DNA of 63,942 nt, filler included, from Thelocarpon superellum (Eukaryota): the NCBI GenBank assembly GCA_026025795.1. It is 4 parts of 4 records of this genome, joined end to end, with 100 filler letters (N's around TTAATTAATTAA, not from the genome) between each part and the next. Parts side by side here need not be neighbours in the genome. Positions count along the whole stretch, not along the records: positions 1 to 16,581 come from JAPEUG010000389.1; 3 more parts are not named here. The stretch is one strand, 5' to 3'. The translations under genes were made by a program, and so were the position numbers. Below, one piece after another: positions 3,910-44,287 of this stretch. Below the pieces are notes generated by a model. The model was given only the letters and a program-made list of their open reading frames with translations. It did not search any database and was not told the origin of the DNA. Numbering within the stretch: position 1 is the stretch's first letter; every line of letters begins with the position of its first letter.

Positions 3910-4789
3910 TGGAGATAAGAACAGCTTGGACTACGATGTGTGATTATCGGGAGGATGATCGGGTTGCTGGGATAGCATTGACAGCGGACAGCGACCACCT
4001 GGCTTGCGCGCAGGCGCGGTGTAACGTGACGGATGACTGCGAGGAAAGCGTGGGTGAGGCCTCAGAAAATGGTGCTCCCCATGGTAGAGAATGACTGCTG
4101 CATACGTACGGAGTACGGGCAGCGTCTTGTTCCTGGCGATAACGCCGCTCGTCTCCCATAGCCGTGCTCTGTAGCAGACCTCTTGTCTCGGGAGTGCTCA
4201 CGAATAAAACGTTAGTCGTGATGTCAAAGGGGCTTTGCAGATCACGTGCAGTTCGCGTCGTCCGCGGCCTGTACGCCTGACTCGTCGCTGGCGCCTTCCT
4301 GACTCAACGAAGCGGGTGTCATCATCTTCCCAGCCGCCTCAACTGTTGCCAAACAATCTCTTCTCTTCATCCTCTTCATCCTCTTCACTTTTCTGCCATT
4401 CACCACGACCAAGATTCACCTTCTTCTTTGTGCACCCCAACCTTTTGATCAATCAAGACACCTGATCCTGCCACGGTAGCCTCTCTCGCATAATCCAAGT
4501 CCAAGCAAATTTCGCCTGGAGTCCTACCACATCGGTCGCACCTCGCGTCTCCGTCAATCCATTTTCTGCACCACTCGTCACCTCCCTCGTTGGCCGCTTT
4601 CGCACAGCCTCAAGAATCGAGATCATCAGTCGTCTCATCGCCAGACTCATCTGACCTGCTTGACTTACTCAAGCCGTCGAGACATCCGTCCCGCTCGGTT
4701 GTGACCCTCAGAACCGGGCATCACCGTCCCGCTATCTCTTCCCTCACTCTAAACCTCTCAGCTCAAGTCGACTCTCTTCACCAGAAAGC

Positions 4790-6712
4790 ATGTCGAACAA
4801 GCTTGACCGCTCGCTGGATGAGATCCTCAGTTCCTCCAAGACCCAGACCGCTCGCCGCGGACGTGGCCGTCGCGCCGCCACCGGCAAGGCCAACGGCACC
4901 GCTGCAGTCGGGCCCGTAGGAGGCATCAAGAAGAATACCCGCACCACCCGAGCGACTGTCCGCGCGAACGCTCCGACTGGACCGAGCGCTGTCTCCGGTG
5001 ATAGCAAAGTGATCGTGAGCAGCTTGGTACGTCTGACCCTGGCTTGATCTGAGATGAGTCGACCGCTAACACGCAACCCACCAGCCGTCCGATGTGAACG
5101 AAGGCCAGGTTAAGGTACGTTGATTGATGAGGTCCTCAAGCCTTTTGGACTTTTATCGCCATCTTCGCGAGATTCGACCGTGACTGGTCCATCTCTTACG
5201 CGGAAAGCCGTCGCCTCTTCCCTTGCCTTCCCGCCTGCCGCGGTCTCATGTTCACATGTGACCCACCACGACTAGCTCCCTTCAGCCCTGCTTGCTCGCT
5301 CATCCTGAGCTTGACGCAGAGGGCCGTGAGGTTGAGCAACAGGTCGAGGTCGTGGGACCGCCGTGTCCACAGCTGTCTGGCAAACACTGTGACCGGTCAG
5401 TCCCAGACCGCTTGGTGATGGCGTGACGTCCTCCGGATCTTTCGGATATATGTTTGGAAACATGTGGAGGGTTCCGAGATACCGGCGGGCGCCGCAGTGA
5501 GAACAGCATAGCGCAGCATTTACCCCGATGAGGCATCACCACCCCCGTGCGGCCTTCTCAACCGGCGACCCCTCCGATGACCCTGACCTTGGTCACTCCT
5601 GTCCATCGCCATCTAAGGACAGCGTGGATTTCATCACTCGTCTGCTCGTTCATGCAAGCATCGACGCCTTCCTGTTACGGGCTGGACGCACTTTACAAGT
5701 CCTTTAGGTTGGATCTCTCGCCACCAGTGGAAGGGGGTTATTGGTTCAGCCGCACCAGTCGTCCGACCCTCACGAAGCGGATCAACCATCGACCATCGAC
5801 AATCGCTCATCGCCCACCTTTGCCCAACACTGAACCTTGGTCCCCCGTCGTACTAACACTAACGCTCACTGCCCGCCCGCTTGCGGAATGCTTTTGGTTT
5901 TGGGGACGATCTATCTACCAGGCGTGGCTGGATTGAGATGTCGGCTGACGTTGCTGGCTCCGCCTTGTTCGCTTTCGACGATGCACGTTGTGCATAATTT
6001 CCGGGAGACTCCAGGACTGACGTTGGCTCGATTGTCTCTCTTAGGAATACTTCCACTCGACTGTTGGCCCCGTGAAGAAAGTGCAGCTCACCTATGGACC
6101 CAACGGTACCAGCCGTGGCATTGCCACCGTCATCTTCAGCCGTGGTGATGGCGCCCATAAGGCTCTGAAGCAGCTGAACGGCGTTCTCGTGGATGGTCGC
6201 CCCATTAAGGTTGGTTCGGCTCCATCTACCCAAGCCCACGCTCTCAGCTTACCATGATAGATCGAGGTGGTCCTCGACGCCTCCAAGGCCCCCCCACCGG
6301 CCGCCATCAAGGCCCTGAGCGAGCGTGTCGCGTACGTGTTCGGACATCGGTTGTATGGAACATCACTAACGAGGGATTGTAGTCAACCCAAAGCTCAGCC
6401 AAAGTCGGCTGCCGGACCCAAGCCGGTGACGAGCGGCCCAACAGTGGGTGGCCGTGGCCGTGGCCGTGGCGGCCGTGGGCGCGGCCGCAACGCGGGTCGG
6501 GCCAAGCCCAAGACGACGGAAGAGCTCGATGCGGAAATGAACGACTACTTTGACGGCGACAGCGCCGCGGCTCCGGCTGCTCCGGTAGGGGCCGATCCGG
6601 CGGTCGCCAACAAGGCGGTGGGGGGTGACGCGGGGATGGAAGACGAGATCATGGTGAGCGGGAACGCCGCTAAAGATATCTGACACGCTTGACTGACTTT
6701 GAGATGTAGTAA
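4790..6712 (+). CDS. YRA1: mRNA export adaptor Yra1/Mlo3/ALYREF (N-box, RRM, RGG, C-box). Exons 4790-5026, 5085-5114, 6045-6209, 6261-6331, 6383-6653, stop-only exon 6710-6712
   Basis: N-box LDRSLDEI. RRM SKVIVSSL|PSDVNEGQVK|EYFHSTVGPVKKVQLTYGPNGTSRGIATVIF...LNGVLVDGRPIK|IEVV. C-box KTTEELDAEMNDYF. All junctions are GT-AG and in frame. Confidence 0.93.
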
Positions 6713-7537
6713 TCACGTCCCCACGATCATCATGGGGCACTGGGAGGGTAGGACAGAAATTGAACAATGAAAGGGGTGGGAAAGAATGAGAAGAATGCCG
6801 GACGACGGGAGACTGCCTTGCTTCTTTTTCTTCTTCTTGTACTGTTCTGCGGGCTTTGTTTGATTCATTTTCTTTTCTTTTCTTTTCATGTCGTTTAGGA
6901 GAATCCATCCGTGAATTCAGTATACGTGCCGGTCGTAGATTGTAGATTGACTTTGGAGCAGAGAAGACAAATGGTAGTTGATGTGACGGGGATATCCTTA
7001 CACCTAGGTTATTTATCCACGATACACACTGTGCATGAATCAAGGGATCTCCTCAAGTGGGCACCCGAGCGTCCGCCAGCACATGGAGTGTAGTTACCTT
7101 GTACTGTTTAGATAGTCCACGAAGAGTCCGGGCATGTCGAGGGGTTGACGCTCTCGTAGAGCACGTGACTCGGCATTGCCACCGCGTGTGGCCAATGTGC
7201 CGAGCCCGACTCGTCACACGCCGACGTCTGAGACGACGGAGGGATCCTGAGACATGGCGGCATGGAAGTCGCATGTACCCCTCTGAAACTGCGGTGTCGT
7301 TGCCATTGAAATCGAATCAACCCAGCATGGATGGGCGTAGGCTGTTCTTTGCTACAGCGGGCCTGTATGGTAACCCTTAGCACCATGCGTCCGCCATGGC
7401 CTTACGCCACCTATCTGGGTGGACTTTAATGCAATGTTCTCCAGCAATGGGGGCAGGCTTCCCTTATCCTCAGTCGAGAGGTGCTTGTTCACCTTCTTCT
7501 CCTATCATCCTTGATCAAGGACGAGCCTGCTTCGAGG

Positions 7538-26910: not shown

Positions 26911-29900
26911 GGTGGAGCCGTAGTTGAGGTGGTGAGGTGAGATTGGGGCGTGGGCGTGGGCAACGTCGGACGTCGACGGGAGAATTGGATTACAAGAGCA
27001 GAAGCGACGCGAGACTCACAACCCGGGCTGCTGCCGCCGGCCAATCCGAGGAGTATTATCGTCCCGCGGGCCGCGCCTCCGATACGGGCGCCGTCGCTGA
27101 CGTCCAGAACAGGACGCTCGGTGTGTGATCACGATGCACAGCGGCGGCGACGGCGGCGACGGCGGCGGTGGGTGCAAAGGCCCGTCGGGAGCTAGAGCGA
27201 AGGGTGCGAACCAAGGGCAGACGGGAACGTGGCGGAGGCAAGGTAAGTGCAAAGGCAGCAAGACATGAGCTGTGGTCGCCGATTGAGGTACCGATGAGAT
27301 GAGTCCGCGATCAGATGGCTCCACGAGAGCTCCACCCCGTCCAAGTGACGCTTGTGGGTGGGCGTGCGTAGAGCGGCAGCGATGGACGTCGTGTTCAAGT
27401 GTTATTCATGGCCAGTGCTAGACCACGCTCAGCGTGATCGGCCCATTTAGCAACACTCCCCCTCCACGGCTCCGCGACAATCGAGTCAAGCCAGGTCGTC
27501 GAAAGTCACCAAGTGAATGATCCTCGGGTGCGGAAAAGGGAGCGCCGAGCTCGTTGCCATTCACCAACGACTGGATCTGCTATTCAAGATGCCCAATACG
27601 AATACATGGGAGAGAGAGGGAGGCGAGCGGAACAAGCCGAAGGCCGGTGGCCACCCCGGCACCTGGGCCGTCGCGCGGCCACACCCGTTTCTCCCCCCAA
27701 GCCACCAGCCACACCTGGCAGCAAGATGGGTCGCGGGCCGACAGGCACATGATGAGAAATCGTCGCTGGAAGAAAGAAGGCCACAACGCTAATGATGACA
27801 ACGATTGAGAAGGGAGAAAGAATTTAGACGGAATCAACCCGGGGCTGCGTGTCACGTGACCCTCTCTACCGCGGCGCAGAATCCGTTCGGCGTCCCGCGA
27901 AGGGCTGAGTCCGAGCGCGAGTATACGTCGGCCGACGCAACTCACTACCCCAGGGCCGATCAAGTAGACGCAGCGGCTGATGGAGGAAGTGTCGGACAGC
28001 GTGTCGGAGGAGTCTCATCTGGCGCGCCGATGTGCCTCTCTCATCGTCCTGCAATCAGCCATGCCCAGCTCCGCGATCGCGTCGACGAAGGAGATACGTC
28101 GGCATGCGTGCGGATTCGTAGATCGACGTGGGGCTCACGGGCGTCCAGGTCGGAGGGGGTGAGGTGGCGCTGCAGGAGATGAAGTGTCTCGCAGCTCGGG
28201 CGCTCGTCGGGCCCGGGTTGGGATGCGGTGCCAGCGAAGAAGGCCGCGGGTCCAGGGCTCATGGCGCAGAGCACAGGGTCCCCCGGCCGGCGTCGGCCGA
28301 CATAAGAAGTCGGCGCTCGCATCTCGTGCGCATCCGCATCCGCATCCGCATCCGCATCCTCCGCTGCCATGTGGGCGCGGGAGGCGACGCAGGCGACGTC
28401 GCTCCGTGCCTGACGAGCGGCGGATGTTGCCAGCCGCCTCCCTTCTCCCGACGCCGACCAGCGGTTGAGACGTTGACGCTCGAGCCAGGATTGGCGCATC
28501 GATTGGACTAGAATTGCCTTCTTCTCTCGTGCCCTTCTCCCGTCGCCTTCTGGGACTAGTGCGGAAGAAAAGAAGGGCTCTTGGCCGATTGCGACGTGGA
28601 ACCAGGAGCGTCACCGCGGCGCACGCGTCCAGGCGAAAGTTTCAAGGACAGCGGCTAAGCGACCGGACGGAGGGGATTGGCCCAGCGCCACCGCAGCACC
28701 GCAGCACCGCAGCACCGCAGCGAAACTCCACCGCGCGCTCGTTGATGGGCTGGCACGCGCGCGCCGCCCTTGGCCGGTCGCCTCCCCTTATGGTCCGGAG
28801 CCAGACCCCCTTACCCTGTGCCCGTGTCTGCGTGCCCACGACCCTTTCCCAACCACCCACGAGCAACGTCACGCGGACCCGTGCCACGTAGGGCGGGCCA
28901 CGGACCGCTCAAGGCCACGTGCCAGCTCATGGACGCAGAGCGATCGGCGGCCGACAGGTGCTGCATCATGGCCGGGCGAGAACAAGGACTTGTTCAGGGA
29001 AGGGGAGAAGGGGGAGGGGGGGCCCGGCCGGACTTGATGAGAACGTACCGCCGTACCAGGGTTCCAGGTTGGCAAGTGCAGAAAACAGGACGGAGCCCTC
29101 GGCAGACTTGGTCCGGGTACTTTGTTCGTGCGCGTCTTCCTTTCTTCTGCCGCCGAGAAGCCTCGGACGAGGGAGGGGGCCCTATGGTCCGAGGGGGTGG
29201 GCCGGGGGAGGGTACAGGGCAGCAGCACGAAACGTTGTGTTACAGGAGCGTACCTGGCGACAGCGTATCCGCCCGAACAGAAGTTACCGGGCAGGACCTT
29301 GCGACGTGCGTTGGCGTCAACGGGCTTGGGGGTTAGCACTACGCAGGAGGTGCTATCCCATCATGGTTCGTTGCGAGAGGATCGCAGCGGATAAGGGTGC
29401 ATAAGGGAGTGGCGCCGCGCAGACCAAGCAGACCATGCAGGCGAGCTGGTCGGCGCGGCTGCTGCAACATTTGATTGCACCTCGCGCCGCTGCAACCATG
29501 TTACTACGACGCGACCACGAGACTACGAGACGGACGAGACGAGTACGGTGGACTGGACCTGGACGGGCCTCCCCAGGCGAACGCCTTGTACCACCGGCCT
29601 CTGGACTGGGGGCAGTCACGGCGCGCGCGCGCAAGTGCATCTGCAGACGCAGCCATGGTTTTTACTGGCTTTGGCTGCAGCGGTAGCCGCAGATCGAGCT
29701 CGAAACTCTCTGTGCGACTATTCTTCGCTCTCGCTCTCGCTCTCTCTCACTCACTCATTCTCTCCCTCCGTTCACTGACCACTTCTTTTCTCTCACGCAC
29801 GCACTTCCTCCCTCGCCCACCCACCACGCATGCACGCGCGCTCTTTCTCTCTCGCACTCTCTCTCTCTCTCTTTTTTTTTCACTATTTGTACTAACGACG

Positions 29901-43861: not shown

Positions 43862-44287
43862 GATGGATGGCGTTGGGCGAGGCGGCGTCGTTCTTGCGAG
43901 GGTAGATGTTCCTGAGGATGGAAGGCCAACGTTCAAAACAAGCGGCTGTTGATCGAAGACTGGGAGTCACGTATGCCACGACATTGAACAGTCCCTTGTA
44001 TCATGGAGCAACAGTAGCAATAGCACGGAAGACGATGGATGGTTGACATGCCAAGTCCCGTTGCAGGTCAGCCTTCAATGGTGAATGACCGCCGGGACAA
44101 AGATTTAACGCAGACGTCAACTCCTGGTCTAAAATTTCATGCAATTATCCCACCGGTGCCTGTTGAACGGCCATGCAAGGTGAGTCCTTAGTCTTTACTA
44201 ACGCCGAGAGCGCAGGGTATCGTTGCCCATGCTGAGATGCCAACCCGCGAAGCACCTTCACCAGCTGCAATCATCTCGCATGCCATG

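Follow-up and report, generated by a model that had tools for sequence, protein, structure and literature searches.

The window analysed here is a 63,942-nucleotide (nt) stretch of DNA from Thelocarpon superellum (GenBank assembly GCA_026025795.1), and at 4790..6712 on its + strand lies the orthologue of Yra1/ALYREF (Mlo3, THOC4), which is interrupted by one very long intron (Table 1). The intron is real and conserved, and probably regulatory, of the kind already known from YRA1, and it carries a possible decoy branch point. The explanation that we favour, with a probability of roughly 60%, is that Thelocarpon has here its version of an ancient regulatory intron, spliced slowly or conditionally, for which retention is the off-state, Yra1 provides the feedback, and a long-range helix together with a branch-point-like box does the tuning. 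An initial annotation of this DNA had singled the intron out as unusually long, at 930 nt, and the rest of the gene agrees: its five introns measure, in order, 58, 930, 51, 51 and 56 nt. Both the length of the intron and its place, within the coding sequence and before or at the RNA recognition motif (RRM), fit an autoregulatory intron of the YRA1 type.

The gene runs from ATG to TAA in six coding segments. Its spliced translation agrees letter for letter with a public protein of 258 amino acids (P0001), entered at NCBI as a hypothetical protein of a T. superellum metagenome-assembled genome (MAG); since the two are identical, the public annotation has the same long intron. RRM_1 (Pfam, E = 1.2e-9) falls on exon 3 alone, and FoP_duplication (PF13865, E = 1.2e-8) lies in exon 5. 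In the PDB, P0001 has human ALYREF/THOC4 and mouse REF2 among its best hits, with the RRMs and the N- and C-terminal boxes in register: MSNKLDRSLDEIL aligns to the N-terminus of REF2 and ALYREF, and the C-terminal EELDAEMNDY to the C-terminus of ALYREF. The lowest PDB E-value belongs to Pab1, a protein with four RRMs. P0001 also contains GRGRGRGGRGRGR, which bears on the RG-rich linkers between the boxes, and several orthologues carry the source names Mlo3 or “RNA annealing protein”. Judged by these domains and alignments, 4790..6712 encodes a Yra1/ALYREF orthologue, as the name YRA1 in the initial annotation had implied.

Relatives were represented by 80 metagenome-contig loci, found with an alignment of 20 orthologues (A1), and their exon edges were judged by tblastn together with position-specific scoring. 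For the counts of conserved blocks, stops and donors, 28 non-redundant introns were used. The loci are akin to one another, and the counts given below are not counts of independent events. Both flanking exons were present in 35 of the 80 loci. In each of the 35 the same phase-0 site is occupied by a long intron, and a short intron at the K/E site was found in none of them (0/35). The long intron was measured in 33 loci (591–1139 nt, GTATGT or GTACGT to AG) and was evident in L068 and L072 from the spacing of high-scoring segment pairs (HSPs). A further 27 loci are spliced exactly between K and E (IK/EYF), 25 by the edge test and L037 and L051 by contiguous HSPs, while 17 begin inside the intron and one (L074) is odd. 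The productive splice is shown by the public protein and by these spliced relatives.

The nearest named proteins belong to Sordariomycetes (Fusarium, Colletotrichum, Pleurostoma), Leotiomycetes (Oculimacula, Cadophora), Dothideomycetes and, for some, near Eurotiomycetes; a divergent subgroup is Pleosporales, and one of the loci, L024, is 100% identical to a protein of Alternaria alternata. Site, length class and shared content across these relatives indicate that the intron, rightly described at the outset as exceptional, is also under selection. The accompanying suggestion that this lineage instead uses a mode of its own finds no support, the architecture being common to classes of Pezizomycotina.

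The shared content consists of short blocks. Among the 80 loci of other fungi, 7 carry an exact 15-mer of the window, ACTAACGCTCACTGC, in this intron; one of the 7 is Colletotrichum-like and several are Leotiomycete-like. When 8-mers were counted over the 28 introns, TGGCAAGC was present in 19, GCCTGGCA and TGCTCGCT in 17 each, CAGCGAGC in 10 and CAGTGAGC in 8, where the maximum in 50 shuffles was 7. The blocks are collinear among the relatives (alignment A2). Measured from the 5' splice site, GCCTGGCAAGCA stands at 218–267 nt in 20 of the 28 introns, with invariant columns in A2; CAGYGAGC stands 341–413 nt and GCTCRCTG 618–753 nt from the donor. The 11-mer GCCTGGCAAGC (window 5374-5386), at ~220–267 nt from the 5' end of the intron, is nearly invariant across classes. 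No convincing partner for pairing was seen for it, so it may bind a protein or act at the level of DNA.

Two of the conserved blocks are the predicted strands of a long-range helix. In the window, 5484-5491 would pair with 5874-5881 and 5494-5501 with 5865-5872, and both the minimum free energy (MFE) structure and the centroid structure predicted for the intron as a whole contain this helix. The corresponding motifs of the relatives, CAGCGAGC-nnA-GCAGTGAG and CTCACTGC-n-GCTCGCTG, are mutually reverse-complementary. The GCTCAC that the initial annotation had read as a third branch-like motif is instead the start of the helix 3' strand. RNAduplex paired the strands in 22 of 22 aligned introns (-17 to -46 kcal/mol), and 91.5% of the cells in alignment A3 hold standard pairs, compared with 14–62% when the partner was slid. 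Both sides have changed in 6 of 16 pairs, giving 11 double-change cells, a number equalled by 2 of 500 shuffles. Pairing is kept despite differing strands in L040 (CAGAGAGC/GCTCTCTG), L063 (GCAGCGAG/CTCGCTGC) and L036 (GCAGTGGG/CCCACTGC), and in the window GGCGGGCG pairs with CGCCCGC. In four loci (L041, L053, L069, L078) the helix at this place is built of quite different sequence, and its energies are -46 to -54 kcal/mol, where shuffles reached minima of -39 to -41.5. Cognate strands reached -35.5 kcal/mol and non-cognate strands -25.0, and the cognate partner ranked first in 12 of 27 cases and among the top three in 16 of 27. The 3'-strand motif was found in 39 of the 48 loci with enough intron, 143–193 nt from the 3' splice site, and the 5' strand lies ~370 nt downstream of the 5' splice site. 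The length of the loop that separates the strands differs greatly from locus to locus, and its flanks are conserved.

Two further pairings were tried and rejected. A hairpin just 3' of the donor (GAGGCC...GGCCTT) was paired in 72%, which 68 of 500 shuffles matched or exceeded, and an outer pairing of TCGACGT with GACGTCGA was no better than shuffles over the 28 introns (-21.7 vs -20.0). The outer pairing was strong only in a few loci (L021, L040, L059, L076). A possible version of it was also noted in L023, L036, L063 and L070, ~60–100 nt into the intron on one side and ~65–95 nt from the acceptor on the other.

Several observations concern the unspliced RNA. Exon 1 and the microexon are joined, with the long intron kept, in 11 loci (L020, L021, L032, L034, L035, L039, L040, L057, L063, L078, L080). 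In L020 and L034 the stop also follows directly after the last sense codon, where genomic-type relatives have an intron. The contig series Ga0170475 comprises 10 spliced and 14 intron-bearing contigs. Retention in the window was initially said to end translation after two codons, and it does (VR-stop, at TGA 5121-5123). The early stop is kept among the relatives: the first in-frame stop comes within 9 intron codons in 27 of the 28 introns and within 5 in 17, compared with a median of codon 52 in the other frames. Donor-like GTRNGT motifs are depleted in the introns (8 observed, 26.4 +/- 4.9 expected; 0 of 200 simulations as low), while the reverse complement is not (43 against 41.8 expected). 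The motif is absent from 20 of the 28 introns, that of the window included, and only one recursive-type splice site was found among all introns. The missing internal donors rule out a poison cassette exon, a nested (twin) intron and recursive splicing. Donor depletion would fit an RNA that persists unspliced, and the early stop together with the purge of cryptic donors is a sign that the unspliced RNA is a regular, long-lived species.

On the explanation that we favour, the process would run as follows. In the productive path, 5115-6044 would be removed as one intron, most likely via GACTGAC. The long intron would be spliced slowly or conditionally, and its 51–58-nt neighbours removed fast. 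Unspliced RNA would stop at the TGA after 89 residues and would probably be degraded by nonsense-mediated mRNA decay (NMD); as the stop comes after 89 residues, no RRM-containing protein would be made. Retention coupled to NMD would give negative feedback on the level of Yra1, as in yeasts. The regulatory core would be formed by the collinear blocks and the helix (5484-5501/5865-5881), which would loop out the variable middle of the intron and set the consensus branch-point box (5851-5863) at its own 3' base. Helix and box would tune the efficiency of spliceosome assembly rather than direct splicing to particular poison acceptors, and they may hide or expose the competing branch site and the pyrimidine-rich strand downstream of it.

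A number of points weigh against this explanation. Retention, feedback and decay are ascribed to Thelocarpon by homology. The RNA origin of the intron-bearing contigs is deduced from their missing other introns and from the contig series and is undocumented, and samples of total RNA would contain nuclear pre-mRNA anyway. The near-invariant blocks could act at the DNA level. As for the helix, formal covariation is modest because its sequence is strongly conserved: further pair types were not above shuffles (193 of 500), and the number of pairs with double changes was matched in 23 of 500. The duplexes of L076 and L080 were no better than those of shuffles, and the best duplex of the GC-rich window (-45.7 kcal/mol) lies inside the shuffled range (mean -39.4, minimum -47.1). 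In the comparison of cognate strands, the windows for five distant loci had been picked by best duplex, a bias in favour of the helix. The folding energy of the whole intron equals that of shuffles (z = 0.21), and RNAalifold found 5 weak pairs with zero double changes in the 5' domain and no pairs in the 3' domain.

A bolder form of the same idea is possible, and we put it forward tentatively. The intron would be an RNA sensor in the Yra1/ALYREF gene of all filamentous ascomycetes, composed of a structured 5' domain with the 11-mer and a helix-gated decoy branch site, and the occupancy of Yra1 or TREX/Sub2 on it would decide whether the transcript is spliced productively or ends as a dead-end or retained RNA and is destroyed. 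If this is true, the sensor would be an ancient homeostat of mRNA export that works by another mechanism than the Edc3 route known in budding yeast.

The initial annotation reported TACTAAC at 5851-5857, followed by CACTAAC; both are there, CACTAAC occupying 5857-5863 and so overlapping TACTAAC. The motif exceeds chance: perfect TACTAAC occurs three times on the two strands of the window, where 0.88 would be expected, and 4 of 100 shuffles reach three; the other two copies lie at 29890-29896 and 44196-44202. The box recurs among the relatives: of the 34 unique loci that carry the 3'-strand motif, 18 have a CTAAY/CTRAY motif directly 5' of that strand (15 flagged by script and 3 read by eye), and so do L041 and L053, but it is absent elsewhere, including L023, L032, L035, L039, L047, L063, L070 and others that keep the helix. 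Four Sordariomycete-like loci without the ACTAAC box (L032, L047, L063, L070) share GGCTCACCTGCCAGTCGC just 5' of the helix strand, ~190–200 nt from the acceptor. CTAAC as such is enriched in the introns, with 30 occurrences against 15.2 expected. From these comparisons the internal box is conserved and probably functional. As a branch point for the productive acceptor it is ruled out, since AGs lie between the two.

The explanation proposed in the initial annotation was that the TACTAAC decoy diverts splicing to the AGs ending at 5921 and 6014, the products with premature stops being lost to NMD, while the productive acceptor competes through a weaker GACTGAC. We consider it unlikely. Its motifs and predicted stops are real: translation of the join from 5114 to 5922 gives GQVK-AWLD-stop and that of the join from 5114 to 6015 gives D-stop, both as first described. 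The recurrence of the box 5' of the helix strand and the enrichment of CTAAC also speak for it, and the helix strand next after the box is rich in pyrimidines, much like a polypyrimidine tract. Within 5800-6050, AGs stand only at 5920, 5936, 6006, 6013 and 6043; those at 5936 and 6006, together with GGCTGAC at 5943, had been missed. The AG at 5920-5921 was correctly placed, but the AG-free run before it is ~120 nt, not ~60 nt. Much of the AG-free stretch after the box is explained by the helix strand, which has no A, and since AGs occur at 1247 per ~23.9 kb, a mean gap of ~19 nt, the run beyond the strand is about what chance would give.

The relatives argue further against directed poison acceptors. 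Their first AG after the box is not fixed, standing 20–122 nt away, and in 15 of 34 loci it is GAG, which is disfavoured, in 12 YAG and in 7 AAG, a pattern more like the avoidance of acceptors; the two competing acceptors are not conserved. The conserved acceptor leading into a stop that would mark an alternative-3'-splice-site NMD switch was likewise not found. The box itself is missing from many loci that keep the helix. Nor is the productive branch point generally weak. A CTRAY motif stands in the last stretch before the 3' splice site of every relative, as CTAAC in 16 of 28, CTAAT in 5, CTGAC in 4 and CTGAT in 3, and GACTGAC fits this loose fungal pattern, so that it differs from the non-consensus branch point of the YRA1 type. 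The initial annotation was right about the presence of GACTGAC, but its contrast with a strong decoy is not general. On the sequences compared, the contrast of weak and strong branch points and the particular poison acceptors are features of the Thelocarpon lineage only. Joining of exon 2 to an internal acceptor was seen in 0 of 80 loci, a set that could easily miss rare forms degraded by NMD.

Alternatively, the box might be a dead-end decoy, engaged in branching or bound by branch-point-binding protein (BBP) or U2 and followed by no usable acceptor, so that transcripts would be discarded or held in the nucleus, with the helix gating the box. A strong consensus box followed by an AG-poor stretch, GAG as the first AG in 15 of 34 loci, and the position of the box at the base of a helix with compensatory changes are all in keeping with this. 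Precedents in budding yeast are spliceosome-mediated decay and BBP-dependent nuclear retention. The idea is nevertheless improbable: many helix-keeping lineages do without the box, and the AG-free run past the helix strand is about as long as chance predicts.

Just as improbable is that the helix only compacts an over-long intron for the intron-definition spliceosome, as a zipper-stem enhancer and without feedback, or that the intron hosts a separate non-coding RNA. Long-range helices that enhance the splicing of long yeast introns are known, as described for RPL7B (PMC12311795), and the wide variation in loop length between conserved flanks would suit such a function. The helix strands, however, lie 340–413 nt from the 5' and 143–193 nt from the 3' splice site, and pairing would therefore still leave ~500 nt. 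Unlike the strands of a zipper stem, those of the helix are far from the splice sites, and the outer pairing is no better than shuffles. That the intron stays long in many lineages, next to neighbours of ~55 nt, argues that the length itself is used. A hosted RNA is opposed by the absence of any Rfam family or small nucleolar RNA (snoRNA)-like match, by which a snoRNA host was rejected, and by the flanking exons carried by the intron-bearing RNAs. Rfam 15 returned 0 matches at E <= 1 over window positions 4400-7000, and over six related loci one sub-threshold match, which lay outside the intron. Finally, the long intron and its motifs might be neutral, an ordinary intron expanded by chance with a chance match to TACTAAC; the shuffle-like folding energy agrees with this, but position, length class, collinear blocks and a helix common to several classes contradict it, and its probability is next to nil.

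A long YRA1 intron in hemiascomycete yeasts is already in print (PMC2911113, citing Preker and Guthrie 2006). Our literature search found no description of this intron or helix in filamentous ascomycetes or Pezizomycotina. Two fungal structured-RNA screens contain no YRA1, Mlo3 or related term in the main text (their supplements, outside the search, may list candidates), and a paper on F. graminearum Yra1 does not mention the intron. The dosage of Yra1/ALYREF is critical, and in yeast excess Yra1 is described as blocking export and destabilising the genome; in the literature found, control of its level in filamentous fungi is not described. The long YRA1 intron is no peculiarity of budding yeast: in Pezizomycotina it is a fixed feature of four or five classes at the least. 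The helix strands, the branch-like box and the invariant 11-mer are precise nucleotides that can be mutated, and what was a vague “long intron” becomes a regulatory RNA candidate directly testable in Neurospora, Aspergillus and Fusarium. It would also be a case from nature in which RNA structure formed over a long range controls which branch site is chosen or how splicing turns out.

Some features of the gene model stand apart from the long intron. The microexon, in the form cag/PxDVxExQIK/GT, is kept across classes in genomic-type relatives (e.g. L029, L036, L045, L047, L061, L065, L070), and in genomic-type loci it has a short intron on its 5' side. The stop codon sits on an exon of its own, after a last sense codon in the context DEIM/L. 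GT comes right after the last sense codon in 17 related loci, including L029, L036, L053, L056, L059, L060, L065 and L068, and in some Sordariomycete-like genomic loci (L023, L047, L061, L070) the stop follows that codon directly. Some public protein models appear to run into the last intron, such as P0047 and P0072, which have extra terminal residues. Many database proteins named “THO complex subunit 4” (P0177-P0215) are 141–190 amino acids long with a FoP domain only and cover just the part of the protein downstream of the long intron; these probably reflect gene prediction on contigs with the intron, starting downstream of it.

Table 1. Features of the YRA1 orthologue and its long intron, in positions of the window
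Feature	Position	Strand	Remarks
Coding segments	4790-5026, 5085-5114, 6045-6209, 6261-6331, 6383-6653, stop codon 6710-6712	+	
Microexon, 30 nt, PSDVNEGQVK	5085-5114	+	flanked 5' by intron 1 (5027-5084, 58 nt) and 3' by the long intron
Long intron, 930 nt, phase 0	5115-6044	+	GTACGT to TTAG; separates K89 from E90, where the RRM starts
5' splice site GTACGT, then in-frame TGA (5121-5123)	5115-5123	+	
Conserved block TTTGGACTTTT	5144-5154	+	~30 nt into the intron
Conserved block GTTGAGCA	5330-5338	+	
TGTCTGGCAAACA	5374-5386	+	window version of the near-invariant block GCCTGGCAAGCA
Conserved block TGATGGCG	5416-5423	+	
Helix 5' strand (predicted), GGCGGGCG-CC-GCAGTGAG	5484-5501	+	consensus of relatives CAGCGAGC-nnA-GCAGTGAG
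Branch-point-like box TACTAAC/CACTAAC	5851-5863	+	adjoins the helix 3' strand
Helix 3' strand (predicted), GCTCACTGC-CCGCCCGC	5864-5881	+	180 nt from the 3' splice site
First AG (CAG) downstream of the internal box	5920-5921	+	candidate acceptor, predicted AWLD-stop; not conserved
Second candidate acceptor (CAG)	6013-6014	+	predicted D-stop; overlaps the start of the productive branch-point motif
GACTGAC, likely branch point of the productive acceptor	6015-6021	+	branch A 24 nt from AG 6043-6044
Last intron, 56 nt	6654-6709	+	falls precisely at the junction of last sense codon and stop codon

The intron can be compared with several known systems. The autoregulatory intron of S. cerevisiae YRA1 is reportedly treated in Preker 2002 and 2006, Rodriguez-Navarro 2002 and Dong 2007, and its non-consensus branch point is said to matter. 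As in that gene, there is here one exceptionally long phase-0 intron after ~90 codons, with premature stops when unspliced and cis-elements that would decide its fate; unlike that gene, the present one has ordinary splice signals, four other short introns, a microexon and different conserved elements. The positions, compared by number alone, are nt 285 (codon 95) in yeast (PMC2864733) and nt 267 (codon 89) here. The yeast YRA1 pre-mRNA is described as exported and degraded via Edc3, not NMD (PMC2864733). For the S. cerevisiae intron, Hooks et al. 2016 (PMC4937481) predicted an RNA structure, again a proposed conserved structure within an intron of this gene, but its conservation is reported for Saccharomycetaceae alone and is based on few compensatory changes.

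The NMD route proposed here is taken from two relatives. In Yarrowia lipolytica, YRA1 (YALI0A20867g) has an 850-bp first intron that is spliced inefficiently, the unspliced form is degraded by NMD, and retention is 27 times higher in a upf1 deletion (PMC2911113, PMC6351623). A long intron in the orthologue and retention coupled to NMD are thus held in common with the decay route that we infer; the differences are that Y. lipolytica belongs to another subphylum, that its branch point TGCTGAC lies 3 nt from the acceptor, and that the parts of those papers dealing with the gene describe no conserved helix or blocks. In Cryptococcus neoformans, a basidiomycete, the intron-retaining mRNA of YRA1 (CNG03240) likewise rises on deletion of UPF1 (PMC5006051), again pairing retention with NMD in an orthologue. 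The zipper stem of RPL7B, finally, is a long-range intronic helix in a self-regulated gene that affects the splicing of a long intron (PMC12311795). It sets the 5' splice site beside the branch point, whereas the strands of the helix described here lie ~370 and ~170–180 nt from the splice sites.

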